A stretch of DNA of 64,000 bases from Mytilus edulis (Eukaryota): assembly GCF_963676685.1 (NCBI RefSeq), contig NC_092346.1:102548001-102612000 (forward strand). The letters run 5' to 3'. The notes beneath the pieces were generated by a model that was given only the letters and a program-made list of their open reading frames with translations, was not told the DNA's origin and searched no databases. A program made the translations under genes and the position numbers. Of the stretch, positions 1 to 62,100 are shown piece after piece; position 1 is the stretch's first letter, and every line of letters begins with the position of its first letter.

Positions 1-3000
1 CATTGTTACCGTCTGAGACCTGGACATAATTGAAAATCCTTTTCTAACAGGTGAAACGTATAAAAAAATGTATTATAAGCGAATAGGTAACGAATAGGTA
101 ACGAATAGGTAACAGGGTATTAACCGAGCGCTGGAACGGGTACATGCGCGCTAATAGGGTCATTTCATCTCTAAGAACACATTCTTACCACCAGAGACCT
201 GAACACAATTAAAAAACGATTTATTTCAAGGTGCACCGTATACCCCGCGCATTAAAAGCGAATAAGTAACGAATAGGTAACAGGTTATTTACCGAGCGCT
301 GGAACGGGTACATGCGCTCTAATGGGGTCATTTCATCTCTAAGAACACATTGTTACCACCAGACATGAACACAATTAAAACACGATTTATTTCAAGTTGC
401 AGCGTATACCCCGTGCATTAAAAGCGAATAAGTAACGAATAGGTAACAGGTTATTTACCGAGCGCTGGAACGGGTACATGCGCTCTAATGGGGTCATTTC
501 ATCTCTAAGAACACATTGTTACCACCAGACATGAACACAATTAAAACACGATTTATTTCAAGTTGCAGCGTATACCCCGTGCATTAAAAGCGAATAGGTA
601 ACGAATAGGTAACAGGTTATTTACCGAGCGCTGGAACGGGTACATGCGCTCTAATTGGGTCATTTCATCTCTAAGAACACATTGTTACCGTCTGAGACCT
701 GGACATAATTGAAAATCCTTTTCTAACAGGTGAAACGTATAAAAAAATGTATTATAAGCGAATAGGTAACGAATAGGTAACGAATAGGTAACAGGGTATT
801 AACCGAGCGCTGGAACGGGTATATGCGCGCTAATAGGGTCATTTCATCTCTAAGAACACATTGTTACCACCAGACATGAACACAATTAAAAAACGATTTA
901 TTTCAAGGTGCACCGTATACCCCGCGCATTAAAAGCGAATAGGTAACGAATAGGTAACAGGTTATTTACCGAGCGCTGGAACGGGTACATGCGCTCTAAT
1001 GGGGTCATTTCATCTCTAAGAACACATTGTTACCGTCTGAGACCTGGACATAATTGAAAACCCTTTTCTAACAGGTGCAACGTATAAAACAATGTATTAT
1101 AAGCGAATAGGTAACGAATAGGTAACGAATAGGTAACAGGGTATTAACCGAGCGCTGGAACGGGTAAATGCGCGCTAATAGGGTCATTTCATCTCTAAGA
1201 ACACATTGTTACCACCAGACATGAACACAATTAAAACACGATTTATTTCAAGTTGCAGCGTATACCCCGCGCATTAAAAGCGAATAGGTAACGAATAGGT
1301 AACAGGTTATTTACCGAGCGCTGTAACGGGTACATGCACTCTAATGGGGTCATTTCATCTCTAAGAACACATTGTTACCACTGAGACCTGGATATAATTG
1401 AAAATCCTTTTCTAACAGGTGCAACGTATAAAAAAATGTATTATAAGCGAATAGGTAACGAATAGGTAACGAATAGGTAACAGGGTATTAACCGAGCGCT
1501 GGAACGGGTACATGCGCGCTAATAGGGTCATTTCATCTCTAAGAACACATTCTTACCACCAGAGACCTGAACACAATTTAAAAACGATTTATTTCAAGGT
1601 GCACCGTATACCCCGCGCATTAAAAGCGAATAAGTAACGAATAGGTAACAGGTTATTTACCGAGCACTGGAACGGGTACATGCGCTCTAGTGGGGTCATT
1701 TTATCTCTCTAAGAACACATTGTTACCACCAGACATGAACACAATTAAAACACGATTTATTTCAAGTTGCAGCGTATACCCCGCGCATTAAAAGCGAATA
1801 GGTAACGAATAGGTAACAAGATTATTTACCGAGCACTGGAACGGGTACATGAGCGCTAATAGGGTAATTTCATCTCTAAGAACACATTGTTAGCACCTGA
1901 GACATGCACATAATTGAAAATCCTTTTCTAACAGGTGAAACGTATAAAAAAATGTATTATAAGCGAATAGGTAACGAATAGGTAACAGGGTATTAACCGA
2001 GCGCTGGAACGGGTAAATGCGCGCTAATAGGGTCATTTCATCTCTAAGAACACATTGTTACCACCAGACATGAACACAATTAAAACACGATTTATTTCAA
2101 GTTGCAGCGTATACCCCGCGCATTAAAAGCGAATAGGTAACGAATAGGTAACAAGATTATTTACCGAGCACTGGAACGGGTACATGAGCGCTAATAGGGT
2201 AATTTCATCTCTAAGAACACATTGTTACCACCTGAGACATGGACATAATTGAAAATCCTTTTCTAACAGGTGAAACGTATAAAAAAAATGTATTATAAGC
2301 GAATAGGTAACGAATAGGTAACAGGGTATTAACCGAGCGCTGGAACGGGTACATGCGCGCTAATAGGGTCATTTCATCTCTAAGAACACATTCTTACCAC
2401 CAGAGACCTTAACACAATTTAAAAACGATTTATTTCAAGGTGCACCGTATACCCCGCGCATTAAAAGCGAATAAGTAACGAATAGGTAACAGGTTATTTA
2501 CCGAGCGCTGGAACGGGTACATGCGCTCTAGTGGGGTCATTTTATCTCTCTAAGAACACATTGTTACCACCAGACATGAACACAATTAAAACACGATTTA
2601 TTTCAAGTTGCAGCGTATACCCCGCGCATTAAAAGCGAATAGGTAACGAATAGGTAACAAGATTATTTACCGAGCACTGGAACGGGTACATGAGCGCTAA
2701 TAGGGTAATTTCATCTCTAAGAACACATTGTTAGCACCTGAGACATGCACATAATTGAAAATCCTTTTCTAACAGGTGAAACGTATAAAAAAATGTATTA
2801 TAAGCGAATAGGTAACGAATAGGTAACAGGGTATTAACCGAGCGCTGGAACGGGTAAATGCGCGCTAATAGGGTCATTTCATCTCTAAGAACACATTGTT
2901 ACCACCAGACATGAACACAATTAAAACACGATTTATTTCAAGTTGCAGCGTATACCCCGCGCATTAAAAGCGAATAGGTAACGAATAGGTAACAAGATTA

Positions 3001-4720
3001 TTTACCGAGCACTGGAACGGGTACATGAGCGCTAATAGGGTAATTTCATCTCTAAGAACACATTGTTACCACCTGAGACATGGACATAATTGAAAATCCT
3101 TTTCTAACAGGTGAAACGTATAAAAAAAATGTATTATAAGCGAATAGGTAACGAATAGGTAACAGGGTATTAACCGAGCGCTGGAACGGGTACATGCGCG
3201 CTAATAGGGTCATTTCATCTCTAAGAACACATTCTTACCACCAGAGACCTGAACACAATTTAAAAACGATTTATTTCAAGGTGCACCGTATACCCCGCGC
3301 ATTAAAAGCGAATAAGTAACGAATAGGTAACAGGTTATTTACCGAGCGCTGGAACGGGTACATGCGCTCTAGTGGGGTCATTTTATCTCTCTAAGAACAC
3401 ATTGTTACCACCAGACATGAACACAATTAAAACACGATTTATTTCAAGTTGCAGCGTATACCCCGCGCATTAAAAGCGAATAGGTAACGAATAGGTAACA
3501 AGATTATTTACCGAGCACTAGAACGGGTACATGAGCGCTAATAGGGTAATTTCATCTCTAAGAACACATTGTTAGCACCTGAGACATGCACATAATTGAA
3601 AATCCTTTTCTAACAGGTGAAACGTATAAAAAAATGTATTATAAGCGAATAGGTAACGAATAGGTAACAGGGTATTAACCGAGCGCTGAAACGGGTACAT
3701 GCGCGCTAATAGGGTCATTTCATCTCTAAGAACACATTCTTACCACCAGAGACCTGAACACAATTAAAAAACGATTTATTTCAAGGTGCACCGTATACCC
3801 CGCGCATTAAAAGCGAATAGGTAACGAATAGGTAACAGGTTATTTACCGAGCGCTGTAACGGGTACATGCACTCTAATGGGGTCATTTCATCTCTAAGAA
3901 CACATTGTTACCACTGAGACCTGGATATAATTGAAAATCCTTTTCTAACAGGTGCAACGTATAAAAAAATGTATTATAAGCGAATAGGTAACGAATAGGT
4001 AACGAATAGGTAACAGGGTATTAACCGAGCGCTGGAACGGGTACATGCGCGCTAATAGGGTCATTTCATCTCTAAGAACACATTCTTACCACCAGAGACC
4101 TGAACACAATTAAAAAACGATTTATTTCAAGGTGCACCGTATACCCCGCGCATTAAAAGCGAATAAGTAACGAATAGGTAACAGGTTATTTACCGAGCGC
4201 TGGAACGGGTACATGCGCTCTAATGGGGTCATTTCATCTCTAAACACACATTGTTACCACCAGAGATATGAATTTAATTGAAAATCCTTTTCTAACAGGT
4301 GCAACGTACAACAAACGTACTATAAGTGAATAGGTAACGAATAGGTAACGAATAGGTAACAGGGTATTAACCGATCGCTGGAACGAGTACATATGCGCTT
4401 ATAGGGGTATTTCATCTATAAGAACACATTATTACCACCAGAGATATGAACACAATTGGAAATCCTTTTCTAAAAGGTGCAACGTACAACAAACTTTTTA
4501 AAAGCGAATTAGTAACGAATATTTAACAGGGTATTATCCGACCGCTGGAACGGATACAAATGCACTTATAGAGTTATATCACCTCTAAGAGCCCAAATCT
4601 TCCACCAGAGACAACAAAACAATTGAAAATCATGTTTTAAAAGGTGCACGTAAGATACACGTATTATAAGGGAATTATAAGCGAGTGATGGAACGAATTA
4701 AACAAGGTAATAGCATGCTC
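1..4720. repeat. Satellite array, ~166-180 bp monomers of three variant types, each with 2-3 GAATAGGTAAC subrepeats; ~841-bp 5-mer higher-order repeat; degenerate right edge
   Basis: CTGGAACGGGTACATGCGC...CATCTCTAAGAACACATT recurs every ~170 bp (about 27 monomers). Near-identical blocks start at 1501, 2342 and 3183 (841 apart). Monomers decay from ~4260 to ~4720. The array runs off the left end of the window. Confidence 0.97.
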
Positions 4721-25423: not shown

Positions 25424-28400
25424 TTAATAGTTTATTTTGAGATTTTCTTTTCCATTATCTGTTTGAGGTAGTTTCCTTCTGAGTATTTTACCACTTGGTA
25501 GTTTAGGAATTTCATCCACAATTTCCAAGCCACCTCGAAGTTTCTTATAAGGGGACACTCGTTCTACAAAAGAAACATAACATTTAATAGCATTACTTGA
25601 TATCAGCAAACAATTTTGCTGAAGATTCTGTTTTCTTTGCAAAGAACTCGGTGATACATCATTAAATTTGTTTTGAAGTACATGGAAAACAATTCAATTG
25701 TACAGTTGGAACATTCCTCTTATTTCAACTGTTTTCTCATCCTTGTGATAACATTCAAATAATTTTGTTCAAAATTTCTAACTTGCATAAGAAAATAGAG
25801 AAAGCTTTGCATTTTCTGTAATGGTTAGAAAATGTGTATTTCAATCATTAAAATATTTATCTGTAGGCAAGCTCAAAACTAGTTCCTTAGATTTTAAATA
25901 TGTAGCATTACATGTACCATTTATATATTTCTGTATTTCTGTTGCTTCAGCATGTGATTTAAGTACAACATATGCCTTTGGAACTTCACCAAAAACATCA
26001 GCTGGTACCCCAATAACTGCTGCCTCTAATATAGCTTCATGGGATAACAGTATAGACTCTAGATAGGTTGGAGATATCTGAAATGTTAATCAAAACTAAT
26101 AATCTTCACAGCTCTGGTATAATTTGTATACTGTACAGAATCAAGGATTACTATACAAATCCTTGACAGAATCTAAAGTAGATCCTCATTTTTGTTCATT
26201 TCCTTTGTTTATTGAAAAAGTAATATCTGTATCTCAATATTTTGTACTGGGGGTATTCCTTAAATTATTTTTTTCATAGGAATCTTTTCTATTTTGTAAC
26301 GGAGAAATTGATGGATAAAATAAGAAACCATCATAAATGTTACAGGCATATTCAAAACAAAATCATGATAATGTCATATGATAAAATTATTCAAACCATA
26401 ACAGTTTGCATGTCATCATAACCCCTGAACTCCAGTGTTGCTATCTGTGCTATCATGAAATAATAGAAGCAGTTTAGAAAATATAAATGTGAATTTTAAT
26501 ATATTTACAACTGCTTTAACATTTGTGTTAAGTATGGCATTTGTATATATGAATAATGCAATTTACCTGATATCCTTTGTATTTAATAATATCCTTTAAT
26601 CTGTCAACAACAAAGTAATGGCCATCGTCATCATAGTAAGCTATATCACCTGAAAAAATCTGAGACCTTGAGAATAATAAGTATGAATGAAATGTGTGAA
26701 TGTAAATAAAACAGCAACCCAACAACATTTGAAAACAACTCTAAAAGATATCTAGGTTTAAAATTCATTTCACCAAGCTCTCTTCAAAACAAAGACACTA
26801 CCAACACGGAGCCTTGGCTCACACCAAACAGAAAGCTATTAAGGGCCCCCAATATGACTAGTGTAAAACAAGGAAAATCTACACTCTAACCTATATAGAA
26901 AAAAGCAAGAAATGGAAACACTTATGAACCATATCAACCAAGACAACCACTGAACATCAGGCTCCTGACTTAGGACACGTGCACACAAATGAAGCGGGTT
27001 TAAATGTTTTAATAGGTACCAACCTTTACCCTTACCGTAAACAATAGCATAACAGTCTGATTTTGAAGTTTTTTATGACATGAATAACTTTTGTGGAAAT
27101 TTATAAAATTTGAACAGAAGCTTTTTTCTATCCAAAAGACAGTGCCCAGACCAAAGTTATTTTATTTATTTTATATTTTCTTATTTTACTGGTTATGTAA
27201 GTACTTTTTAAAATAGTAGTTGTTATCAGTTTAAATCAAGTACTGTTTATAGAGAACATAGAATAACCTGTTTTTATCCAGCCATCTTCTGTAATAGACC
27301 TCCTGGTTGCTTCTTCATTGTTTAAATATCCTTTAGTAATTTGTGGCCCACACGCCCATATTTCACCAGACTCAAATGCTTTTGTTATAGTTTCTCCATT
27401 TTCAATATCAATTAGCTAAAATAATATATAAAGATTATATCAGTCTATAACTAATTAAAATTTGTGGATGTTTGGAAATTATGGGATGATTGTCAAATTG
27501 CATATCACTAGTTCTTGATTTATCGATTGATTCCTATGATGTAGGAATATAGAAGTTAAACCTTTGAGTATTCAATTATTATAGTCATACCAAGGATTTG
27601 TATAGTAAATATACAAATCCTTGGTCATACATTGAAAAGAGTGATATGCAATTCAGACCCACTGAAGCAATGGAAACATCCATTTTGATACATTACTATA
27701 CTGAGTAAAAATTTATATAATATAATTATAAAAAGTTAAAAGATTAAAATTACACTTATCATATACATTTATCTAATACAGCTTGTTAAGTTGTTAAAAG
27801 ATCTTTATAATGTGTTCTTGCATGAGATGAGTTACCTTTGATATAGTATTGGGTACTGGCTTGCCGATAGAACCATATTTATGACATCCAACAGGATCAG
27901 TGAATATTTACCTTTGATATAGTTTTGGGTACTGGCTTGCCGATAGAACCATATTTATGACATCCAACAGGATCAGTGAATATTTACCTTTGATATGGTA
28001 TTGGGTACTGGCTTGCCGATTGAACCATATTTATAACATCCAACAGGGTCAGTGAATATTTACCTTTGATATAGTTTTGGGTACTGGCTTGCCGATTGAA
28101 CCATATTTATGACATCCAACAGGATAAGTGAGTATTTACTTTTAACAGAGACATATATTGTATTATATGTCTCTGCTTTTAATATGGTATTGGGTACTGG
28201 CTTGCCGATTGAACCATATTTATGACATCCAACAGGATCAGTGAATATTTACCTTTGATATGGTATTGGGTACTGGCTTGCCGATAGAACCATATTTATA
28301 ACACCCAACAGGGTCAGTGAATATTTACCTTTGATATAGTTTTGGGTACTGGCTTGCCGATTGAACCATATTTATGACATCCAACAGGATCAGTGAATAT

Positions 28401-31400
28401 TTACCTTTGATATAGTATTGGGTACTGGCTTGCCGATTGAACCATATTTATAACATCCAACAGGATCAGTGAATATTTACCTTTGATATGGTATTGGGTA
28501 CTTGCTTGCCGATTGAACCATATTTATAACATCCAACAGGATAAGTGAGTATTTACTTTTAATATGGTATTGGGTACTGGCTTGCCGATTGAACCATATT
28601 TATAACATCCAACAGGATCAGTGAATATTTACCTTTGATATGGTATTGGGTACTGGCTTGCCGATTGAACCATATTTATAACATCCAACAGGATCAGTGA
28701 ATATAGCGCCACTAGTTTCTGACATTCCATAGCCTGTTCAATAAATTGGTAATCACATTTTATGACATTTTACCTTATTTTAAAAACATTGATAACTGTT
28801 TCAAATACTTATTGCTTAATTTTATTTATCTGTCAGTGTGTCACATAATTCAGGATTTTTTCTCATCTTTGCGAGGCAAGGGTAACCCTTGTCTAGAGAA
28901 GATAGAGAGAAGGGAAGTGGATCGTAACCCTTGTCTAGAGAAGATAGAGAGGAGGGAAGTGGATCGTAACCCTTAGGTAGAGAAGATAGAGAGGAGGGAA
29001 GTGGATCGTAACCCTTAGGTAGCGAAGATGTGTTTGCCTTTGATGCTTGATGTATTTTCCTTCTTCTCTTTTCTTCTCCATTTTTGTCGAGCCTGCCACT
29101 TTTGTCGCAGAAAGCTCGACATAGGGATAGTGATCCGGCGGCGGCGCCTTTAGCTAACTTCTTAAAAGCTTTATATTTTAGAAGGTGGAAGACCTGAATG
29201 CCTCATACTTTGTATATGGATGCCTCATGTTACGAAGTTTCCGTCAGCCACATGTCCAATGTTCTTGACCTCATTTTCATGGTTCAGTGACTACTTGAAA
29301 AAAAGTTAAGATTTTTTTGTAATGTTAAACTCTCTCTTATTATAAGTAGTAGGATAACTATATTTGGTATGTGCATACCTTGCAAGGTCCTTATGTCGGT
29401 CAGACAGTTTTCACTTGACCTCAACCTCATTTCATGGATCAGCAAACATGGTTAAGTTTTGATGGTCAAGTCCATATCTCAGATACTATAAGCAACAGGC
29501 CTAGGTCTAGTATATTTGGTGTATGGAAGCATTGTAAGGTGTCATCTGACCTTAACCTTATTTTCATGGTTCAGTGGTTATAGTTAAGTTTTTGTGTTTT
29601 GGTCTGTTTTATAATCCTGGTACCTTTGATAACTATTTCTTATACTGTATGCAATAGGTCTACTATATTTGGTGTATGGAATGATTGTAAGGTGTACATG
29701 TCTAGCTGGCAGGTGTCATCTGACCTTGACCTCATTTTCACGGTACAGTGGTCAAAGTTAAGTTTTTTAGTTTTGGTCTTTTTTAGCTCACCTGACCTGA
29801 AAGGTCAAGTGAGCTTTTCTCATCACTTGGGGGTCCGTCCTCCGTCGTCGTCCGGCGTCACCGTCGTCTGTAAACTTTTACAAAAATCTTCTCCTCTGAA
29901 ACTACTGGGTCAAATCTAACCAAACATGGCCAAAATCATTATTAGGGTATCTAGTTTAAAACTTGTGTCCAGTGACCCGTCCAACTAACCAAGATGGCCG
30001 CCATGGCTAAAAATAGAACTTAAGGGTAAAATGCAGTTTTTTGCTTAAAACTAAAAAAACAAAGCATTTAGAGCAAATCTGACATGGTGTTAAATTGTTT
30101 ATCAAGTCAAGATCTATATGCCCTGAAATTTTCAGATGTATCGGACAACCCGTTGTTAGGTTACTGCCCCTGAATTGGTAATTTTAAAGAAATTTTGCTG
30201 TTTTTGGTTATTATCTTGAATATTATTATAGATAGAGATAAACTGTAAAACAGCAAAAATGTTCAGCAAAGTAAGATTTTCAAATAAGTCAACAGGACCA
30301 AAATGTTCAGTTGACCCCTTTAGGAGTTATTGCCCTTTATAGTAAAATTTTAACCATTTTTCGTAAATCTTAGTTATCTTTTACAAAAATCTTCTCCTCT
30401 GAAACTACTGGGCCAAATTAATCCAAACTTGGCCACAATCATCATTGGGGTATCCAGTTTAAAAATTGTGTCCGGTGACTCGGCCACCCAACCAAGATGG
30501 CCGCCATGGCTAAAAATAGAACATAGGGGTAAAATGCAGTTTTTGGCTTATAACTCAAAAACCAAAGCATTTACAGCAAATCTATCGTGAGTAAAATTGT
30601 TTGTCAAGTCAACATCTATCTATCCTGAAATTTTCAGATGAATCGGATAACCGGTTGTTAGGTTGCTGCCTTGAATTGGTAATTTTAAGGAAATTTTGCC
30701 GTTTTTTGTTATTATCTTGAATATTATTATAGATAGAGATAAACTGTAAACAGCAATAATGTACAGCAAAGTAAGACATAAAAATAAGTCAACATGACCA
30801 AAATGGTCAATTGACCCCCTAAGGAGTTATTGCCCTTTATAGTCAATTTTTAACAATTTTCATAAAATTTGTAAATTTTCGCTAACATTTTCTACTGAAA
30901 CTACTGGGCCAAGTTCATTATTGATAGAGAAAATTGTAAGCAGCAAGAATGTTTACTAAAGTATACACATCACCATCACCAAATCACAATTTTGTCATGA
31001 ATCCATCTGTGTCCTTTGTATAATATTCACATAGACCAAGGTGAGCGACACAGGCTCTTTAGAGCCTCTAGTTTCTAATACTATATGCCATAGGTCAACT
31101 ATATTTGGTGTATTTAAATATTTTATGATCTATATGTCAGTTGTGCAGGTTTTATTTGACCTTGACCTCATTTTCACAGTTCATTGATCAGTGTTAAGTT
31201 TTTGTGTTTTGGTCTGTTTTTCTAACTATAAGCAAAAGGTCAACTATATCTGTTGTTTGGGAGAATTGTTTTCTGTAAATGCCTGTCTGGCATGGTTCAT
31301 CTGACCTTGACCTCATTTTCATATTTCTAAGGTCAATGTTAAGTTTTTATGGTTAATGTTAAGTTTATGTGACAGATGTAAAAAAGCTTTATATTTAGGA

Positions 31401-34400
31401 CTATCAACATAATATCAATGATTAGTAAAGAAGGCGAGACATTTCAGTATGTGCACTCTTGTTATCTTTTGTATGAAATATATCAACATACACTTTTTTT
31501 TTAATTCTTATTACTGACTGAAAACCTTCTAACACATATGAAACTATGAAGTTGGAGTAACCTTTGCTCTAAATAATCTTGAACTCTATCTCGATTGTTA
31601 ATGGCGCTTGTGCTATTCGCATAGCAATGACTAGCATACTTTATTTACCATTCTTTACCTTGTCTTATTCCCTGTAGTTTGAGTCTATGTACCATTTGTT
31701 CAGTTAAAGTTTTACTTAAAGGGGCAGCTCCAGAGTATGGTGTATGTAAACTAGACAAGTCGTACTTGGATACCATAGGGTCTTTGGCAAAAAAGTTTAC
31801 AAGTGGTGGTGCTATTAAACTGAACGTTCCCTGAAAAGAAAAACGATTATTTCTGTTATCTTGAACATGTTCTCTTCTGGATTACAGTTTGTACAATAAA
31901 AAAATGCCATTGCATGATATAGAGCAGTTCAAAATTAAGTTTTTTTAAATTATTGTGAAAGATGAATTTTACTTTGTCCAGAATGTAAATTAGTTTTTTA
32001 AAATATAAATATTAAGGGTGGGGGTCTTTCATATTTTTTTCATATTCGAAAAGCATGATATTAAATTTAAATTGAGACTGAAAATTAGAATGTTTTAACG
32101 AGACAGCAACCCGGCCAAAGAGCAGATTACAGTCGAACACACTACCAATGGGTCATCAACACAGCGATAACTAAATCCCGCACCCGGAGTGGGGCTTCAG
32201 CTGGCTCCTAAACAAAAATGTGTTTTACTTGTTCAGTGAAAATGGACGTCATACTAAACTCAATATAAACCTACCCTAAAATTTTGAATAGCATTGAGGT
32301 AAGATTCTGCTTCAAACCTGGGTAGAACAACAGTAGCCGCTCCCTGTGACAAAGGGTTCATCATCCCTATCATAAGTCCAGCAATGTGTACCATAGGTAG
32401 ACAGGAGATTGATTTCTCTTCTCCAGACACAAATGGAATTATTGTTGGATGTCTATATTATAAAAATACGCAATTAACACTTTATATACCAGTAAAAAAA
32501 TCATTATTGCTTTATTCTTTATAAAAAAACATTTACTTTTTTCAGTTTAGTATAATTGATGAATACATGTATCATAAGTTTCTTTGCACGAGGTTGATAT
32601 TTGGATTTTGACAAATTCATGAGCTCAATCTTGATTTATATAGCATGTATACAGCTACGATACCTCATTTTAAAGATGTGCATATGGATCATCAAACTTT
32701 ACTCATCCATTGTATAATTTTTTTTCCATTTCAACTTTAAGGGTTGCATACTCCTTGGGACCTTTGAATAACGTTTCAACATATATTGAACATAAAAAGA
32801 AAAAGACTATCACCGTAATTGACAAAGTTCAGCAACTAAGTTTTTATGAGTCAGTAATACGCCTTTTGGTAACCCTGTGGTCCCACTGGAGTATGGTACC
32901 AGTGCAGTATCGGTATCAGGGTTTATGTTTACATCTGGTAATTGGTTTGCCTTTGTTTCTATGAGGTCACTAAAGTTTCGATGAAATTCTGAATAGCCTA
33001 TAACTATGATTTCCTGCAATATCATACAAATATTCAAATAAATTTTAAAGAATGTACCCTAATTATTTTTTTGTTTCATCTTGTTTTTTAAAACAAGTAA
33101 TTCAAGTTATGTTTATTAAATAGTTACTATATAGAACCAGCTTCTTAATTCCTTTCAGAATAAAAGTATGTTATGATATGAGCAAAAGGAGACGAGAAAG
33201 CAACCAAACAAAAGATACGGACCATCGTTTTATATGGTTCAAGAAAAAGGGAGATAATATTACTTTAATTGAATATTCTATTGGGTTATCTCTAATAGTT
33301 TTGTACTAAAAATTGTATACCTTTACACTCGGAACTTTGACTTTTGCATTATTCGCCTTAGTAACGCAGTCAGGTGTTGTGATAATAAATTTAGTACTAG
33401 TATCATATAGTTGTGTGGCCAGCTCATCTACAATAGTAAAAAGGACATTTGACTCACAGTTGAAATTGAGACAAATTTCAGATCTGCTTGCTAAGAATTG
33501 CACCCTGAAGACAATACTTAATCATAAATCACAATACAGCATCAACAAGAATGATTTTAATCGGATTGGAAAGATGTGATTGATATGTTCTAATCGATTT
33601 TCATAGCTAAGAAAACGATTGCTTTGGTGTTGTTTCGATTTATGTAAGATTTGCATGTCTATTCCCAATACATTAAGTAAGTTGTCTCACCAACATTAAT
33701 CAGGGCATGAAGTCACTTTATGTTCAGCATACATATAAATAGTTAAACAATATATATTTTAAATAAATATTATGATATATACATTACAAACTCACCAACC
33801 TGCAGTAAGCTGCGAGTTAGCTATTGTTAAAATGGCACCGTTGGCCGTCACACCACAAAAGACATGTGCGAACTCGGGACGATTCGTTCCATATAAACAC
33901 ACTATATCGTTCTTTTGTAAACCAATATTTTTAAATCCTGTTGCTGTAGAAACTATTTCAGACTCTAACTGATCAAAGGTTGTTTCTTGTCCAGTAATGC
34001 CATTTATCTAAAACGTAAATGAGAAGAATAAAGTGTGTTAATATGAGTGTCTTATCATACTTTGTATTGAAGCTGCCTCATCAAGATATGACTTATCAAT
34101 GTTTTATGCATGGTGACACTACGGGTGTCACATATGGAACCGGAACTGCTGACACTTCCTTTAGTTCGTCCTCTGTTAATGGTGGTGCTAGTGTTGCTCG
34201 CAATCTTTCATTTTGTATCTAATGTTTTGTTCTTAACTTTTTGTCTTTTAGTCGTTTTATTTTTGGGCATTGTGTTGTCTAGTTTTTGTCGAGCCTTCGA
34301 CTTTAGTCGAAAACGCGAGACTAAGCGATCCTACATTCCGTCGTCGTCGTCGGCGGCTGCGGCGTCCACAATGTTCACTCTGTGGTTAAAGTTGTTGAAA

Positions 34401-41110: not shown

Positions 41111-42899
41111 TATTTTTTACTGTGCATGCGATAATGTACGTGCGCACATAACAATTCAAAGGGGCTCTTGTGGGAGAATAATAATAACTTTCAATAAGTT
41201 GTATGAAGATTGTATCCTTGTCACGTCCTTATGTTATAATGAACTCCACAGGTGTCAAATGAAAAGACATACATTTGACTTAGAATTCTGTCGTTAAAAG
41301 AACGCATTTACCAGTAAATATCGATGTAATATAATTCCTTGATTTCTAAAACAGTCGTTTTATGTATAGATATTGGAAATTATGCTATTAACAATTATAT
41401 GGAGATTACACTATCCGTTAAGAACAAGCAATGTAATATAGAGCGAGTGGCATCATGTGTATGGATTTTTGTAAATTAGATTTCCGACATGCAGACAAGT
41501 TAATGTCAGCTGCAATAGAAACTGCAATTTTCTCAGTCAGTTAGTATATCAACTATAACAATGTTTAAAACGGATAGGAGAAAATTTGTAAGAATATCAA
41601 GTGCGAACAGTATTAGTCTTATCCATGTTTACCTCATTTATATGCTCTGAACAAATAGAACTAATTCCTTTGTGCCAAGAACAAAATTTTGGCACATATT
41701 TTGATATTTTATTGTCTTTGTTGGTGCATAAACATATATACAATTTATATCTTATCGTATGTTTTTCTATGTTGTGATGTTACACTATTGTTTCAGAAAA
41801 AGGGAGAAGGTTTGGTACCATTAAAACGTTTAATCCCGATGTAAATGTTTTCACCTGTCCTAAGTCAGGAATCTTATGTACAGTAGTTGTCGTTTGTTTA
41901 TGTAATTTATACGCGCTTCTCGTTTCTCGTTTTATATATATATAAGACCGATGTTTTTTCCCGTTTGAATGGTTTTACACTTGTTATTTTAGGACCCTTT
42001 AAAGCTTGTTGTTCAGTGTGAGCCAAGGCTCCGTGTTGAAGGCCATACATTGACCTATAATGGTTTACTTTTATAAATTGTAATTTGGATGGAGAGTTGT
42101 CTCATTATCACTCACATCACATCTTCCTATATCTACATATGTCTTTGGATGGTAAAAAGTTTCGTAATTTAGTACTTCAACACGCAGGATTTAAAACTAT
42201 GTATATAAATCAAAACATGATGGTGTCTTCTTATAAACACATGTCCGATACAAAACCATCTGAAAGCAAGCTATGGTGGGTTCGTGAAAATGAGGTCAAT
42301 GACAATAGATATATGACAAATGGAAACTTCAGATAATAGATCACCTGCATACTTTATACGAAGCATCCAGTCTTGTAGTTTCTGACATATTTATCTTTAT
42401 ACACATATGTTCCAGTCATGGCCACTAGGGTAGCATATTACCTATGTGTCCCATTCTAAGATCGTCATGAAAAATGTATGAAATACTTTCCACTGGGCAT
42501 TAAGCAACGACAATCACATTTTAAGACATTTGTTGCAGTCAAAACAAAAGCCCAATTAAATCTAATGTTTCACCTGATTCAAATTTTATGGTTTCACTTG
42601 CTACATGATTACCAGTAAATTGAATACTTCAGACTTGTGTCATAGTGATCTTAAGAGGACTTCTAAATACCTTTAATTTTTTTAAACCAAACTAAGACGT
42701 AGAAAGATAACATCATCAGTAAGAAAAAGTGGATATTTACAGGCTTTTATCAGTACAGTATCACTAATTAAGAAATGCACCTAAATGCAAAACTTAACAA
42801 AAGTCAATCAAATATGGGCTTTATGAATTCTGCCTTGTAAAATACAGGAGTCCTGTATGTTGTGCATATGAAAAAAGATTCATGACAAAGGAACCTTGG

Positions 42900-45800
42900 C
42901 AAATACTAAGATAGACATGAAACAGCACCAATACCTACAGGTTTAAATATATCTTCAAACAACAAGGCAAACACCAAGATGAACACAAACCAACTCCACT
43001 ACCTACAGGTTTAAACAGATTTCCAAACAAGGCAAACACCAAGATGGGCATGAAACAACACCACACCTACAGGTTTAAATAGATTTCCAAACAAGGCAAA
43101 CACCAAGATGGACATGAAACAACACCACACCTACAGGTTTAAATAGATCTCCAAAAACAACCAGGCAAACACCAAGATGGACATGAAACAACACCACTAC
43201 CTACAGGTTTAAATAGATCTCCAAACAACAAGGCAAACACCAAGATGGACATGAAACAACACCACTACCTACAGGTTTAAATAGATCTTCAAACAACAAG
43301 GCAAACACCAAGATGGGCATGAAACAACACCACACCTACAGGTTTAAATAGATCTTCAAACAACAAGGCAAACACCAAGATGGACATGAAACAACACCAC
43401 ACCTACAGGTTTAAACATATACTCAAACAACAAGGCAAACACCAAGATGGACATGAAACAACACCACACCTACAGGTTTAAACATATCTTCAAACAACAA
43501 GGCAAACACCAAGATGAACACAAACCAACTCCACTACCTACAGGTTTAAATAGATTTCCAAACAAGGCAAACACCAAGATGGACATGAAACAACACCACA
43601 CCTACAGGTTTAAATAGATCTCCAAAAACAACAAGGCAAACACCAAGATGGACATGAAACAACACCACTACCTACAGGTTTAAATAGATCTTCAAACAAC
43701 AAGGCAAACACCAATATGGACATGAAACAACACCACACCTACAGGTTTAAACATATCTCCAAACAGCAAGGCAAACACCAAGATGGGCATGAAACAACAT
43801 CACACCTACAGGTTTAAATAGATCTTCAAACAACAAGGCAAACACCAAGATGGGCATGAAACAACACCACACCTACAGGTTTAAACATATCTTCAAACAA
43901 CAAGGCAAACACCAAGATGGACATGAAACAACACCACACCTACAGGTTTAAACATATCTTCAAACAACAAGGCAAACACCAAGATGGGCATGAAACAACA
44001 CCACACCTACAGGTTTAAATAGATCTCCAAAAACAACAAGGCAAACACCAAGATGGACATGAAACAACACCACACCTACAGGTTTAAATAGATCTCCAAA
44101 AACAACAAGGCAAACACCAAGATGGACATGAAACAACACCACTACCTACAGGTTTAAATAGATCTTCAAACAACAAGGCAAACACCAATATGGACATGAA
44201 ACAACACCACACCTACAGGTTTAAACATATCTCCAAACAGCAAGGCAAACACCAAGATGGACATGAAACAACACCACTACCTACAGGTTTAAATAGATCT
44301 TCAAACAACAAGGCAAACACCAATATGGACATGAAACAACACCACACCTACAGGTTTAAACATATCTCCAAACAGCAAGGCAAACACCAAGATGGGCATG
44401 AAACAACATCACACCTACAGGTTTAAATAGATCTTCAAACAACAAGGCAAACACCAAGATGGGCATGAAACAACACCACACCTACAGGTTTAAATAGATC
44501 TTCAAACAACAAGGCAAACACCAAGATGGACATGAAACAACACCACACCTACAGGTTTAAACATATCTTCAAACAACAAGGCAAACACCAAGATGGGCAT
44601 GAAACAACACCACACCTACAGGTTTAAATAGATCTCCAAAAACAACAAGGCAAACACCAAGATGGACATGAAACAACACCACACCTACAGGTTTAAATAG
44701 ATCTTCAAACAACAAGGCAAACACCAAGATGGACATGAAACAACACCACACCTACAGGTTTAAATAGATCTCCAAACAACAAGGCAAACACCAAGATGGA
44801 CATGAAACAACACCACTACCTACAGGTTTAAATAGATCTTCAAACAACAAGGCAAACACCAATATGGACATGAAACAACACCACACCTACAGGTTTAAAC
44901 ATATCTCCAAACAGCAAGGCAAACACCAAGATGGGCATGAAACAACACCACACCTACAGGTTTAAATAGATCTCCAAAAACAACAAGGCAAACACCAAGA
45001 TGGACATGAAACAACACCACACCTACAGGTTTAAATAGATCTTCAAACAAGAAGGCAAACACCAAGATGGACATGAAACAACACCACTACCTACAGGTTT
45101 AAACATATCTTCAAACAACAAGGCAAACACCAAGATGGACATGAAACAACACCACACCTACAGGTTTAAATAGATCTTCAAACAACAAGGCAAACACCAA
45201 GATGGGCATGAAACAACACCACACCTACAGGTTTAAATAGATCTTCAAACAACAAGGCAAACACCAAGATGGGCATGAAACAACACCACACCTACAGGTT
45301 TAAATAGATCTTCAAACAACAAGGCAAACACCAAGATGGACATGAAACAACACCACACCTACAGGTTTAAATAGATCTTCAAACAACAAGGCAAACACCA
45401 AGATGGACATGAAACAACACCACACCTACAGGTTTAAATAGATCTCCAAAAACAACAAGGCAAACACCAAGATGGACATGAAACAACACCACACCTACAG
45501 GTTTAAATAGATCTTCAAACAACAAGGCAAACACCAAGATGGACATGAAACAACACCACACCTACAGGTTTAAACATATCTTCAAACAACAAGGCAAACA
45601 CCAAGATGGACATGAAACAACACCACACCTACAGGTTTAAACATATCTTCAAACAGCAAGGCAAACACCAAGATGGGCATGAAACAACACCACACCTACA
45701 GGTTTAAACATATCTTCAAACAACAAGGCAAACACCAAGATGGACATGAAACAACACCACACCTACAGGTTTAAATAGATCTTCAAACAACAAGGCAAAC

Positions 45801-48800
45801 ACCAAGATGGGCATGAAACAACACCACACCTACAGGTTTAAACATATCTTCAAACAACAAGGCAAACACCAAGATGGACATGAAACAACACCACACCTAC
45901 AGGTTTAAATAGATCTTCAAACAACAAGGCAAACACCAAGATGGACATGAAACAACACCACACCTACAGGTTTAAACATATCTTCAAACAGCAAGGGAAA
46001 CACCAAGATGGGCATGAAACAACACCACACCTACAGGTTTAAATATATCTTCAAACAACAAGGCAAACACCAAGATGGACATGAAACAACACCACACCTA
46101 CAGGTTTAAATAGATCTCCAAAAACAACAAGGCAAACACCAAGATGGACATGAAACAACACCACACCTACAGGTTTAAATAGATCTTCAAACAACAAGGC
46201 AAACACCAAGATGGACATGAAACAACACCACACCTACAGGTTTAAACATATCTTCAAACAACAAGGCAAACACCAAGATGGACATGAAACAACACCACAC
46301 CTACAGGTTTAAACATATCTTCAAACAGCAAGGCAAACACCAAGATGGGCATGAAACAACACCACACCTACAGGTTTAAATAGATCTTCAAACAACAAGG
46401 CAAACACCAAGATGGGCATGAAACAACACCACACCTACAGGTTTAAACATATCTTCAAACAACAAGGCAAACACCAAGATGGACATGAAACAACACCACA
46501 CCTACAGGTTTAAACATATCTTCAAACAACAAGGCAAACACCAAGATGGACATGAAACAACACCACACCTACAGGTTTAAACATATCTTCAAACAGCAAG
46601 GGAAACACCAAGATGGACATGAAACAACACCACACCTACAGGTTTAAATAGATCTTCAAACAACAAGGCAAACACCAAGATGGGCATGAAACAACACCAC
46701 ACCTACAGGTTTAAATAGATCTTCAAACAACAAGGCAAACACCAAGATGGACATGAAACAACACCACACCTACAGGTTTAAATAGATCTCCAAAAACAAC
46801 AAGGCAAACACCAAGATGGACATGAAACAACACCACACCTACAGGTTTAAATAGATCTTCAAACAACAAGGCAAACACCAAGATGGACATGAAACAACAC
46901 CACACCTACAGGTTTAAATAGATCTTCAAACAACAAGGCAAACACCAAGATGGACATGAAACAACACCACACCTACAGGTTTAAATAGATCTTCAAACAA
47001 CAAGGCAAACACCAAGATGGACATGAAACAACACCACACCTACAGGTTTAAATAGATCTTCAAACAACAAGGCAAACACCAAGATGGACATGAAACAACA
47101 CCACACCTACAGGTTTAAATAGATCTCCAAAAACAACAAGGCAAACACCAAGATGGACATGAAACAACACCACACCTACAGGTTTAAATAGATCTTCAAA
47201 CAACAAGGCAAACACCAAGATGGACATGAAACAACACCACACCTACAGGTTTAAATAGATCTCCAAAAAACAACAAGGCAAACACCAAGATGGACATGAA
47301 ACAACACCACACCTACAGGTTTAAATAGATCTTCAAACAACAAGGCAAACACCAAGATGGACATGAAACAACACCACACCTACAGGTTTAAATAGATCTT
47401 CAAACAACAAGGCAAACACCAAGATGGGCATGAAACAACACCACTACCTACAGGTTTAAATAGATCTTCAAACAACAAGGCAAACACCAAGATGGACATG
47501 AAACAACACCACACCTACAGGTTTAAATAGATCTTCAAACAACAAGGCAAACACCAAGATGGGCATGAAACAACACCACACCTACAGGTTTAAACATATC
47601 TTCAAACAACAAGGCAAACACCAAGATGGACATGAAACAACACCACACCTACAGGTTTAAATAGATCTTCAAACAACAAGGCAAACACCAAGATGGACAT
47701 GAAACAACACCACACCTACAGGTTTAAACATATCTTCAAACAGCAAGGGAAACACCAAGATGGGCATGAAACAACACCACACCTACAGGTTTAAATATAT
47801 CTTCAAACAACAAGGCAAACACCAAGATGGACATGAAACAACACCACACCTACAGGTTTAAATAGATCTCCAAAAACAACAAGGCAAACACCAAGATGGA
47901 CATGAAACAACACCACACCTACAGGTTTAAATAGATCTTCAAACAACAAGGCAAACACCAAGATGGACATGAAACAACACCACACCTACAGGTTTAAACA
48001 TATCTTCAAACAACAAGGCAAACACCAAGATGGACATGAAACAACACCACACCTACAGGTTTAAACATATCTTCAAACAGCAAGGCAAACACCAAGATGG
48101 GCATGAAACAACACCACACCTACAGGTTTAAATAGATCTTCAAACAACAAGGCAAACACCAAGATGGGCATGAAACAACACCACACCTACAGGTTTAAAC
48201 ATATCTTCAAACAACAAGGCAAACACCAAGATGGACATGAAACAACACCACACCTACAGGTTTAAACATATCTTCAAACAACAAGGCAAACACCAAGATG
48301 GACATGAAACAACACCACACCTACAGGTTTAAACATATCTTCAAACAGCAAGGGAAACACCAAGATGGGCATGAAACAACACCACACCTACAGGTTTAAA
48401 TAGATCTTCAAACAACAAGGCAAACACCAAGATGGACATGAAACAACACCACACCTACAGGTTTAAATAGATCTCCAAAAACAACAAGGCAAACACCAAG
48501 ATGGACATGAAACAACACCACACCTACAGGTTTAAATAGATCTTCAAACAACAAGGCAAACACCAAGATGGACATGAAACAACACCACACCTACAGGTTT
48601 AAATAGATCTTCAAACAACAAGGCAAACACCAAGATGGACATGAAACAACACCACACCTACAGGTTTAAATAGATCTTCAAACAACAAGGCAAACACCAA
48701 GATGGACATGAAACAACACCACACCTACAGGTTTAAATAGATCTTCAAACAACAAGGCAAACACCAAGATGGGCATGAAACAACACCACTACCTACAGGT

Positions 48801-49605
48801 TTAAATAGATCTTCAAACAACAAGGCAAACACCAAGATGGACATGAAACAACACCACACCTACAGGTTTAAATAGATCTTCAAACAACAAGGCAAACACC
48901 AAGATGGACATGAAACAACACCACACCTACAGGTTTAAACATATCTTCAAACAACAAGGCAAACACCAAGATGGACATGAAACAACACCACACCTACAGG
49001 TTTAAATAGATCTCCAAAAACAACAAGGCAAACACCAAGATGGACATGAAACAACACCACACCTACAGGTTTAAATAGATCTCCAAAAACAACAAGGCAA
49101 ACACCAAGATGGACATGAAACAACACCACACCTACAGGTTTAAATAGATCTCCAAAAACAACAAGGCAAACACCAAGATGGACATGAAACAACACCACAC
49201 CTACAGATTTAAACATATCTTCAAACAACAAGGCAAACACCAAGATGGGCATGAAACAACACCACACCTACAGGTTTAAACATATCTCCAAACAGCAAGG
49301 GAAACACCAAGATGGGCATGAAACAACACCACACCTACAGGTTTAAATAGATCTTCAAACAACAAGGCAAACACCAAGATGGGCACGAAACAACACCACA
49401 CCTACAGGTTTAAATAGATCTCCAAAAACAACAAGGCAAACACCAAGATGGACATGAAACAACACCACACCTACAGGTTTAAACATATCTTCAAACAACA
49501 AGGCAAACACCAAGATGGACATGAAACAACACCACACCTACAGGTTTAAACATATCTTCAAACAGCAAGGCATGCACCAAGCAAGGCATGCACCAAGATG
49601 GACAT
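42900..49605. repeat. 67-bp (65-70) satellite, ~99 copies, strongly strand-asymmetric (CA-rich on +)
   Basis: Unit AAACAACAAGGCAAACACCAAGATGGACATGAAACAACACCACACCTACAGGTTTAAATAGATCTTC, with no unique spacers. Confidence 0.98.
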
Positions 49606-55300: not shown

Positions 55301-58300
55301 ATTTGGCTCTACTGAATCTTCTAGAAAAATTTAGGACTTTATTCTAGCTACAACATAATAAAGTTCTTAAGGGATAGGAAGTAAGCTCTACTTCATGTAA
55401 AGCACGTCTTTAGTTTTTGATACAAAGATGCTGATCTATTTTTAACAGATGCAGAAATGTAAGATATTTTTAGAATCACAAAAAAAGAAACAATTTTAAG
55501 AATTTGTACCGGTAATGCTAAAATCTCTCCTGGGAAAGTAAAAAATGCAGATGTTTCCAGGCTAATTCAAATTCTTTATGTCTTTAACAATTTTTATTTA
55601 GAAAGTTACAGTTTATAAAATTGTGTATTACCTGGTTTATAAAGTACTCTGGCCCCCGTATCATCCTCAGTCTGTATGTAAGGTACTTTGTGTATAGTGT
55701 AACCTCTACTAAACAGTAAATAGTTATCTCTGTTACTCATTGCTAAAACATAAAAATATGAGTTAATATATTGCAATCAAATCCTGTTTCTAATGATAAA
55801 TCTATTATGAAAGAAAAAAGTAACAATATCAGTGAATCTAATGTTCATACAAAAAGCTTTATTAGAGCTTTCAAAAGAGGATTTGTTTCATTTAAACAGG
55901 TTTTACTATATATGAAAATTTATTCATGAAATGAGTGAAAAAGAGAAATTGAGAAATTATCTCCCTTTGTAATAACTATCCTGTCATAAAGTTAATTGGT
56001 TACAAAACAGTTGTTGGGATCGTTTAGCTGAATATACAGTATCTTTTTTTTTTCTCATAGGTTAAAGCCGTACATTACTGCTTCAATTGAACTCTGGTGG
56101 ATAGATGTCTCATTGGCAATTATAATTCATTTCTGCATCTTGACAGTAAACTTACGTTCACATCTTCTACCATCACCTCTGTAATTATCATTACATACAC
56201 AAGAATAAATATCTACATTCAATATACAGCTGGCATGTCTGTCACACACTCTGGGGTCACGTCTACAGGAGTCCAAACCTAAATAACAATTGTACATCCA
56301 TTTCAATGTACATCATTAAGATAAAGATTTTTAACTAAGGTGTTTTATGTTCATGCATAAAAAAAGTGAATTAAAAGTTCACAAAATGAACATACAGATC
56401 CATAAAGTTGAGTTTTTTTTGAAGAAACCTTTGATCTTTTGATTTAAAACAGAAATTTATGCTGTTGCAATAAATGAGGCTGAGTAGATGTCATTTCAAG
56501 TATTTTACCTACACAATTTAAACTACAAGCTAGGAAAAATAATGTGTATTATTGCTATTTAATGAAATTTTCTTTGATCTTACTGACTGGTAAGCGTAAA
56601 TGCCTGTTGTCAATAAAATTAACAACGGCAACATAGGTAAAACAGCGATTAACAGATTATCATTGGTCATCTCAACGACTGCTTTTCTCACTTTTGCCGT
56701 ACTGGCTGAAGCGAGAAAATCAATTTTTTTTATCAAAGATAATTTATAGTTACTGTAAACAGGGAAATTTTCGCGGTAGTTTTATTTTCGATATTTTCAC
56801 GGTAAGAATAGAAACGCGAAAATATCAAAGAAACTCTTTTTATTACATTTACTTTTACAAGTTGTGACTTGGATGGAGAGTTAGCTCTTTGACACTCATA
56901 CCTCATCTTTATATATCTACGTATATGGAATAGAATATATATATATAGGACTACTGTGTTACACTGATTCTATAGATGACACACATATAACTGAAATCAT
57001 ACCTGTATCTCTTAATGAAAATCAATGTTAGGAAATTATAAATTTAATGCAAACAGTTCACCATAAACAGGAAAGCAATCATAACGGATTTTGTTATGTA
57101 AACAATACTCATTGCAATTATGTTAATGATACATGTCAATCAGTAATGAAAGTATCACCTCGTTAAATCAACTACACAGATTAATCAAATCAAAAGATCG
57201 ATTAATTAGCGTTAATCCTGAGAGCATTTGTTTTTGATTCAATCTTAATTAGGTCTACTTTTCTGTATTGTGTATGTGTTTTTACAAGCAAACATGACAA
57301 ACTTGTAATCTACTTTAACATAAATGAACCGAAAAACAAAAGATTTCTGATTGATTTTATCACATGATTTAAGATATATGTAAAGTTGATCTTTTTCCAA
57401 ATCATTTATGAAAATATTTATATGGGCCACTTGGAAATCGCGAATTCAAAACAACGCGAATTTGGATTGTGTTAGAAAATCGCGAAATAAAGACGGCGCG
57501 AAAATTTCCCGGTTTACAGTATCAAAATATCAACTATTTTAAATCTCAACACAATATATCATGTTTTTTTTTAAAACTGAGTTTATTATCAGTGAATATT
57601 GTAAAGTGTTCTGTTTACCTCTAGGTTCACATCTGTGCCCATCTCCTTGATATCCAGCGGAACATCGACATCTGTATGACGAGGAATCAGGATCATACAA
57701 ACACTGAGAATTAGGTCCACAATTGTTTACTTGGTTACATGGCACCACTGCAAACATATTTAAATATCATTTATTACACATGTTATAAGAGTATTATCTA
57801 ATTTTCTATATAAATGTCATTGACATAAGCAAGATTATTTCATGCATACCTGTCAAAGCTCAAATTCTAGTAGTGCATGAGGATCTTTTACCTTTTCAAA
57901 TTTGAAGTCTATCCTTTTAGATCTTTCATCATTCAAGGGTATGAACATCTCCCTTGTGATAAAAACACGATCTCCATCCTTTTTTTCATTTGAGTTCTTT
58001 TGAAAGTAATATACAGTGGCGGATCCAGAGGGGGGGTTCCGGGGGTCCGCACCCCCCCTTTATTTTGGCCGATCAATGCATTTGAATCGGGACATATGTT
58101 TGCACCCCCCCTGCACCCCCCCCCCCCCCTTTTGCCCTGGGCTAGCACCCCCCCCCTTTCGAAAATTCCTGCATCCGCCACTGATATATGTGCATAATTT
58201 TTACTGTATAGCAAAAACAGTGTGCATTTCATAGTAATAGACATAATAGGTCATCAAGATGTTGACCAAGTAAATCCATGTGTAAATACTTAATTTTTAT

Positions 58301-58957
58301 CTGTTTGTGCTGAAATATTACAATGCTTTTTAACTTTTATAACATTGAATGAATGTAGAACTGTCCAATAAGCTGGACTCATATCTCCTGCATCAAGGGT
58401 TGAAGTTGGAGTATGCCAGTGAATGAAACCGTGAATCAATGAAGTTGAGAAACAAAACTAGGGCATTATTTTTTTTTGGGTCTGCATCCATTCATAAGTA
58501 ATATTCCTTCTGTTCGTATGTTTGTCCGGCTTCAGATTAAAGTTTTTGGTCAAGGTAGTTTTTGATGAAAGTCCAATCAATTTGAAACTTTGTACACGTA
58601 GTCACTATAAGATCTTCTGATTTTAATATCTCAAATTCCAGTTTTTACCACAATTTCACGGTCCACTGAACATAGCAAATAGTACTTGTTGGGCATCTGT
58701 GTACTATGGACACATTCTTGTTTCTTATGATTTATTTAATTTACCTCGGTTTGTCTCTATAACCATAAAATACAATTTAACAATCTGTTAAAATCTGTCA
58801 TATTTACCTCTTGAAATACAAACTTTACCATCCCCATCATATCCAGTATTACATACACATCTATATCTATTCACTCTACTATCCACAACACATTGGGCAT
58901 TAATATCACAGTCATTGTACATGTTACAGCCCTCAGGTTCACAACGATACCCATCAC
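52370..58957 (-). CDS. NID: Nidogen/entactin, C-terminal part (EGF repeats, G3 YWTD beta-propeller, terminal EGF); 5' exons outside the window
   Basis: Exons 58957-58808, 57747-57619, 56278-56156, 55742-55632, 55026-54904, 54611-54440, 54115-53958, 53581-53458, 53041-52920 and 52509-52370 are in phase. Motifs: [63 protein letters not shown]...QLCWGDAG...ECI, YPFGL, LYGITAV...CP...[25 protein letters not shown], then a stop with no TM segment. Confidence 0.92.
56753..57519. mobile_element. MITE with TA TSD (Tc1/mariner-type non-autonomous)
   Basis: TA|CTGTAAACAGGGAAATTTTCGCG ... CGCGAAAATTTCCCGGTTTACAG|TA, with subterminal CGCGAA repeats. Confidence 0.85.
58014..58183. mobile_element. Short GC-rich MITE, TIR CAGTGGCGGAT
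   Basis: ATA|CAGTGGCGGATCCAG ... CTGCATCCGCCACTG|ATA. Confidence 0.85.
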
Positions 58958-61711: not shown

Positions 61712-62100
61712 TGTTGTAAATACGGTGCGAACACAACACTGGAACATAACTTAATTTTCATATTATAATGTAAAGACTTTGTGAAGTGTCACTTGTATTT
61801 TTGGGCATTATATAGATCGATTACATATTAAAATATGTTTTCTTCCTTAACTCACATATTCTCAACATTTTGGTGTCGTGACCAGTATTTGAAAAAGCTG
61901 ATATTGATTAGGAAAGGGGACAGAAGTGTTGTGACAAGACATCAACGAAAAATAAATAATTTGATAACATTAGAAAGTGTAAAACAAAAGAAGAAACTTT
62001 GGACTATTTAAATCAACAGATTATAAATGCAATCAGTTCAGAGGATATTGAAGAAGAAATTCTCAATACAGATGAGTGTACTTTAGACTTAGAAACTTAA
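61712..62100 (+). mobile_element. Decayed BEL/Pao-like LTR retrotransposon 5' end (LTR + PBS + gag remnant)
   Basis: TGTTG...CAACA segment at 61712-61867, then TGGTGTCGTGACCAG at 61871, similar to a tRNA-His primer-binding site. An acidic peptide IINAISSEDIEEEILNTDECTLDLET follows, reminiscent of BEL/Pao gag N-termini. Confidence 0.55.

Follow-up and report, generated by a model that had tools for sequence, protein, structure and literature searches.

Three hairpins of 24–33 bp, each bounded by an exact 7-bp target site duplication (TSD), appear from translation and from GT/AG sites to lie within the introns of one acyl-CoA synthetase gene of Mytilus edulis, and they are very probably excision scars of P-type elements. 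The complete explanation, in which they are the scars of two P-superfamily families (A and B) whose long parents are present in the genome, can be held with almost the same confidence. The hairpins were found in a window of 64,000 nucleotides (the whole stretch of DNA that was analysed) on contig C3, and the searches described below covered a genome of 1.37 Gb.

The hairpins and their alleles

The first-pass annotation had described three hairpins with perfect 7-bp TSDs, and exact repeats were confirmed at all three places (Table 1). A search of the 64-kb window for elements of 16–46 bp with arms of at least 8 bp and an exact 7-bp repeat returned just these three, and dinucleotide shuffles of the window (n = 200) contained no such element in 198 cases and one in 2. 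The empty-site control proposed for the third hairpin also holds: a sister unit of the surrounding tandem array carries the 7-mer in single copy and lacks the 37 bp by which the insert-bearing unit is longer, with diagnostic bases common to both units. The array repeats the exon end and donor site about 11 times inside the intron, its copy number appears to vary between runs, and it might affect splicing.

Table 1. Hairpins, duplications and host-gene features in the window.
Feature	Position	Strand	Remarks
TSD 1, left copy	26135..26141	.	Occurs once in the empty X6 allele
Family A scar, 24 bp	26142..26165	.	18 + 8 nt from the two ends, overlapping by 2 bases; perfect arms 8 bp
TSD 1, right copy	26166..26172	.	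Exact direct repeat
TSD 2, left copy	27584..27590	.	Empty allele in X6; boundary of the 91-bp deletion in the second X2 contig
Family A scar, 33 bp	27591..27623	.	18+1+14 nt; alternatively 18+16 overlapping by one base, with a single substitution acquired later; perfect arms 14 bp
TSD 2, right copy	27624..27630	.	Exact direct repeat
TSD 3, left copy	28139..28145	.	Exact direct repeat
Family B scar, 30 bp	28146..28175	.	Complete 18-nt tail joined bluntly to 12 nt from the opposite end; perfect arms 12 bp
TSD 3, right copy	28176..28182	.	Exact direct repeat
Empty site, sister unit of tandem array	28556..28562	.	TSD 3 in single copy
76-bp tandem array	27832..28704	-	Copies of host-gene exon 3' end and donor site; scar 3 inside
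Host gene, approximate span of exons seen	25427..32998	-	AMP-binding acyl-CoA synthetase, 4-coumarate-CoA-ligase/luciferase-like; PF00501, PF13193

Insertion at both A sites is shown by the empty alleles of run X6 (another study and another species label), in which exactly 31 and 40 bp are skipped and one TSD copy is left. Both scars are carried by runs X1 and X2, with two substitutions inside the first scar in X1, and the scars are polymorphic between samples. In a second X2 contig, 91 bp are deleted from the left boundary of scar 2 onward, which resembles an imprecise excision; the haplotype that carries this deletion shares variants with the empty haplotype. The raw-read run X22 contributed 2 reads only. 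At the third site the contigs of other runs break in the tandem array. Among the 7 runs the alleles seen were empty, scarred or deleted, and in none of them did a long element occupy one of the three window sites, so that excision at these sites is inferred and not observed.

Elsewhere in the window, a 170-bp element (58014-58183) has arms of 11 bp that start with CAGTGGCGGAT, is flanked by a 5-bp repeat, and belongs to a common type of small repeat that is present at other loci too. Long tandem arrays occupy 91-4675 (period about 168 bp), 42898-49581 (about 67 bp) and 58908-61715 (about 62 bp).

Family sizes and junctions

A genome pattern search with the 8-bp arms of the first two elements identified 1,596 places of at most 46 bp for family A (control, 10), and a pattern derived from the third element identified 1,572 places of 24–42 bp for family B (control, 0). 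The first 50 A places on contig C1 provided a sample of 48 distinct contexts, and the first 50 B matches listed provided 31 distinct places. An exact 7-bp TSD was present at 28 of the 48 A sites and 19 of the 31 B sites, rising to 39 and 24 when up to one mismatch was allowed; an exact TSD of 6, 8 or 9 bp was found at none of the sampled sites in either family. The 7-bp duplication is thus as consistent as the first-pass annotation had supposed. The A target consensus reads as a palindrome: T occupies position 2 and A position 6 in 57 of 78 symmetrised sites.

In the scars both TSD copies are kept and solely bases of the outer terminal inverted repeat (TIR) stand between them. The junctions in the A sample (n = 48) have an overlap of 0 in 10 cases, of 1–2 bases in 17 and of 4 in 2, while the other 19 contain a fill-in or a later change. 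A length peak at or below 34 bp had been anticipated; instead, 30 of the 48 A scars are longer than 34 bp and the modes are 35 and 39. These counts include passenger copies, as seen from a shared flank in 6 of 30 loci and, likewise, in all 6 of the 29-mers fetched. Such copies inflate some of the counts, yet they are too few to remove the steps in arm length described below. The scars would be too short for most repeat libraries. A separate scar-like family with CACAGGCAC ends (L370-L377), for which a parent was not found, has junctions that often hold runs of A or T.

Long parents and their transposases

A PF21787 profile search of the genome produced 47 matches. Five long A elements were assembled around these matches, four of which (9.8, 11.8, 12.0 and 14.2 kb) have TIRs of 35–37 bp and exact 7-bp TSDs; in the fifth both ends are present and the flanks are unmatched. 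The genome contains 119 long A ends, and short A forms are about 13 times commoner. A 930-aa open reading frame (ORF) of family A has RNase H N, GTP-binding and RNase H C domains (PF21787/21788/21789), and its sole match in the PDB is the fly P transposase (6P5A, E = 3e-15). It retains D230, D303 and E531 together with all 8 GTP residues named in PMC7776569.

Long B elements (n = 5, among 20 places examined) range from 1.5 to 8.9 kb with 32-bp TIRs and exact 7-bp TSDs. An 8-kb B parent with a damaged left end carries a frameshifted transposase that is 52–62% identical to that of A. Both P-like families proposed for the window therefore have long parents with matching ends. None of the outcomes that would have told against the first-pass reading was encountered. 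With respect to the expectation that such relatives would encode a THAP/P transposase, the P type was found, in A and in the broken copy of B, but a THAP domain was not: none was detected in the A 930-aa ORF or in 23 other frames of at least 55 aa from one A element, a search that a short exon would escape.

A search for long B ends by four guessed patterns produced no family, although one of its matches led to the true parent. A 424-bp element was considered as a long B parent and rejected, as it is an unrelated 391-bp MITE inserted in a B scar. This MITE (L252:185-608; L268-L297) appears young, with copies 99% alike among 2,189 first-look candidates, and is unrelated to P; almost every copy lies between AAT and ATT, and at least one is inserted in a B scar.

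Families C and D extend the set. The D parent is 7,850 bp long and of P type, with a match to PF21787 only. For C, a second end or a transposase was not found within 20 kb of two long ends. TIRs of the P superfamily begin with CA in Repbase usage; those of A, B and D begin with CA and those of C with CT.

Several features of the P elements in this genome were observed in passing. A convergent second ORF of 350–430 aa is common to the A, B and D parents (L082:795-2093, L080:1782-2834), and it has no Pfam match and only weak look-alikes in the atlas. An 8.2-kb P-superfamily element with an 8-bp TSD (C4:31888478-31896631, L117/L089; C5:65212024-65220181, L119/L090) carries a 1,091-aa Pif1-helicase/PHD protein that faces the transposase, and its 10 equal-scoring copies in the PF21787 search suggest recent activity. 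Pif1 ORFs adjoin further P transposases (L085, L088, L095). Two loci are candidates for transposon-made inversions: C10:60587087-60643278, where inverted A copies lie 32 kb apart and the flanks look exchanged, and C1:42980000-42989999 (L091), a large inverted duplication of another P element.

Arm lengths within the parent TIR

When the scars are compared to the ends of their parents, the arms stop abruptly at a depth that depends on the family. Of the A arms, 165 end at nt 19, and nt 20 is reached by 574, nt 21 by 82 and nt 22 by 23 (the count at nt 22, the A join classes and the D arm counts were made by hand). In the A sample the longer arm is 20 nt in 17 of 48 scars, 18 nt in 12 and more than 20 nt in 5; arms of 17 and 18 nt make up 17 and 18 of the 96, respectively. 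In B, pattern searches found 474 arms that reach nt 18 and 11 that reach nt 19, and 18 of the 62 sampled arms are 18 nt with none longer. An early reading of the B tail as 20 nt was dropped, since the parent shows 18. Family D has 127 short sites; among the 50 listed, 21 arms stop at exactly 18 and 3 extend beyond. Family C has 2,026 end matches, and of the 46 arms in 23 short elements, 9 stop at 19, 7 at 20 and none beyond.

The tail lengths are thus 20 nt in A, 18 nt in B and D, and 19–20 nt in C, and exact joins of two full tails exist in each of the four families. A maximum of 17 nt, as in a Drosophila-type footprint, was seen in none of them. The tails are likely longer than 17 nt and family-specific, and the 17-nt cut of the first-pass annotation is not supported. 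Its partition of the two A scars into 17+16 and 17+7 nt likewise gives way, against the parent ends, to the partitions in Table 1.

Among 50 listed A joins in which both arms are at least 19 nt, 19+19 does not occur, 20+19 occurs 36 times, exact 20+20 occurs 8 times and 6 are longer fill-ins. Written as 19+x+19, x is never 0 and is a single A or T in 36. The excess of 20+19 over 20+20 joins (36 vs 8) is a point against the preferred explanation. At 11 of 30 long-end A loci the product has one long arm, of the kind that aborted gap repair would leave; the short arm is 20 nt in 7 of them (two being copies of one event) and never longer.

A minor class of arms continues for 3 nt past the main stop and ends directly behind AGG. 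It comprises 12 of 82 arms in A, where +2 accounts for 4 and +4 to +6 for none, as well as 2 arms in D, and possibly marks a second nick position. A scar search for the young-looking P family with the 8-bp TSD (the 8.2-kb element) returned 0 sites, and a search for two CACAG-ended families returned 36 sites vs 16 in the control, mostly of another family.

Sequence beside the cut-off

The A and D tails end in A and are followed by AGG, and the B tail ends in A and is followed by GAG; AGG also follows the fly tail in the available text of PMC11368186. The bases after the tail repeat the TIR from nt 3 onward, for 6 nt in A, 4 nt and a wobble in B, and 5 nt in D, with words that differ per family; in D another position (25) ties on the 8-base repeat score. 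A prediction for C, recorded before the test, placed a repeat at the tail end and was borne out to within one base. The C long ends (two among 70 loci) have the repeat from nt 20 on, exact in one and with one change in the other, and the G at nt 20 can derive from the partner arm. Since the four families are related, these tests are not independent, and because A is the last base of every tail, the tails would also be compatible with a nick one base earlier and an added A.

In the fly P structure, as presented in the accessible part of PMC7776569, the transferred strand loops out, doubles back and pairs with the 5' part of the other strand, while nt -14 to -18 are disordered and the HTH sits on the inner TIR. 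According to the same partial text, the doubled-back A-form helix is needed for P transposition, and it is not known how, or in which order, the P strands are cleaved. A doubled-back pairing of the fly type would require nt 3 onward to be repeated at the nick, and tails of 17–20 nt could be accommodated by a disordered loop. Judged from the sequences, the inner nick is probably placed by a motif or repeat and not at a fixed 17 nt. A broader proposal is favoured by a slightly smaller degree, namely that the 17-nt fly stagger may not hold throughout the superfamily: the nick would be set by the repeated bases of nt 3 onward, which would let the cut 5' end swap onto the transferred-strand tip, the depth would vary from 17 to 20 and be readable from the TIR, and the scars would map cuts, germline end joining and shared hotspots.

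Proposed origin of the scars

In the proposed mechanism, insertion of a parent with duplication of 7 bp, the step that is documented, would be followed by a cleavage modelled on the fly, with the transposase cutting at the element's tip on the transferred strand and further in on the opposite one. Each flank would keep a 3' single-stranded tail of the outer TIR. The germline might then join the tails bluntly, at overlaps of 1–2 bases or with small fill-ins, and the product would be a hairpin of at most two tails. The family-specific tail length (20 in A, 18 in B and D, 19–20 in C) enters this scheme as an observed pattern. The inner TIR motif would likely set the nick, after A, before AGG/GAG and at the start of the nt-3 repeat, and the new 5' end would pair with the transferred-strand tip as in the fly strand-transfer structure. 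The scars themselves would be immobile dead ends. Since the junction classes are as in the fly, the scars are most simply read as end-joined donor sites.

The first-pass annotation had left open that the hairpins are ultra-minimal MITEs moved by a P transposase, and this now seems very improbable. Short forms do outnumber long ends (1,596 vs 119), and a 35-mer, a 39-mer and a 36-mer recur at many unrelated sites with their own TSDs. However, these recurrent forms are the simplest two-tail joins and their recurrence is partly passenger copying. MITEs are recognised as a homogeneous family with complete TIRs and inner binding sites; here the inner TIR, which the HTH binds in the fly, is absent, the junctions are diverse, and the 31 B sites present 29 distinct sequences. 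Nicks made 18–20 nt from each end of an element of at most 36–40 bp would leave no duplex. The cut-off of the arms, which products with one long arm also obey at the same limit of 20 nt, strongly disfavours such elements.

Two other readings make different use of the same junctions. It is unlikely, though less so than the MITE reading, that the scars arose from a fixed 17-nt cut as in the fly with the extra 1–3 bases copied back from the sister chromatid before joining. Templated repair does occur, as the products with one long arm indicate, and arms of 17 and 18 nt are common in A, but copying should not halt at one base as the arms do in A (574 to 82 at nt 20) and B (474 to 11 at nt 18). Moreover, the A and B drops fall at different distances and at the same motif, and exact joins of two full tails recur in A, B, C and D. 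Least probable of all is a transposase-independent internal deletion, through slippage or recombination involving the two TIRs that a resident element carries. While the overlaps of 1–2 bases at 17 of 48 junctions would suit such an event, the TIRs are 27–37 bp long and yet the breakpoints almost never lie in the inner TIR. Intermediates are rare as well, with 68 B sites of 46–76 bp vs 1,572 of 24–42 bp, although the arm lengths of the two patterns differ. The footprint model as a whole is upheld by arms composed only of outer TIR between TSDs and by long parents with the same ends.

Comparison with known P elements

When the fly P element is excised, 3' tails of 17 nt remain, and they are joined either bluntly, through short overlaps or with inserted bases, as given in the available portions of PMC2895639 and PMC7776569. 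The mussel scars share with the P{wa} donor junctions of Drosophila melanogaster (PMC2895639, Table 1) the order TSD, outer TIR tail, outer TIR tail, TSD. The same portion of that paper reports blunt joins, overlaps of 1–3 bases, small and templated insertions and products with one long arm, all of which have mussel counterparts, and the DDE and GTP residues of the transposase are the same. In contrast, the TSD is 7 bp in the mussel and 8 bp in the fly, the tails are 18–20 nt and not 17, and the mussel scars are natural, germline and present in thousands while those of the fly are laboratory isolates. The mussel parents also differ in their size of 8–14 kb, in their second ORF and in that no THAP domain was found.

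Galileo, a Drosophila member of the P superfamily, resembles the mussel families in its 7-bp palindromic TSD (GTANTAC) and differs in its long foldback TIRs and THAP domain, as far as the available text of PMC4168063 describes it; the mussel TIRs are 27–37 bp. A literature search for excision footprints of Galileo returned a single general review. The zebrafish Pdre2/THAP9 system is likewise a P-like element outside the insects, with an excision-competent transposase, but Pdre2 has an 8-bp TSD and its excision gave larger flanking deletions, with no tail length stated, in the accessible sections of PMC10983969. A literature search that covered few subscription papers and Repbase reports returned no account of P scars in mollusc genomes or of a cut depth specific to a family. 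The P excision footprint is known, while the 7-bp TSD, the natural occurrence in thousands, the family-specific tails of more than 17 nt and the candidate nick rule appear to be new. With four natural families in which tails differ and inner repeats co-vary, the mechanism of nick placement becomes directly testable, and the scars record end-joining outcomes in an animal germline for which the substrate is known.

Clustering and nesting

The A and B scars together have a density of 2.3 per Mb, which corresponds to approximately 0.005 expected in 2 kb, and the window contains three within 2 kb. Clustering is not peculiar to this window: on contig C1, A sites lie no further than 5 kb from 5 of 30 B sites, vs 0.54 in rotations (p = 0.0007). 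P insertion hotspots are shared and comprise promoters and origins, according to the part of PMC7776569 available, whereas the mussel cluster sits in the 3' introns of a gene. Scars of different families were also observed nested within each other (B in A, C in A, B-like in C and A in B) at L035, L039, L408, C2:9665608 and C10:54940286, and such nesting is far commoner than expected for a 30-bp target.
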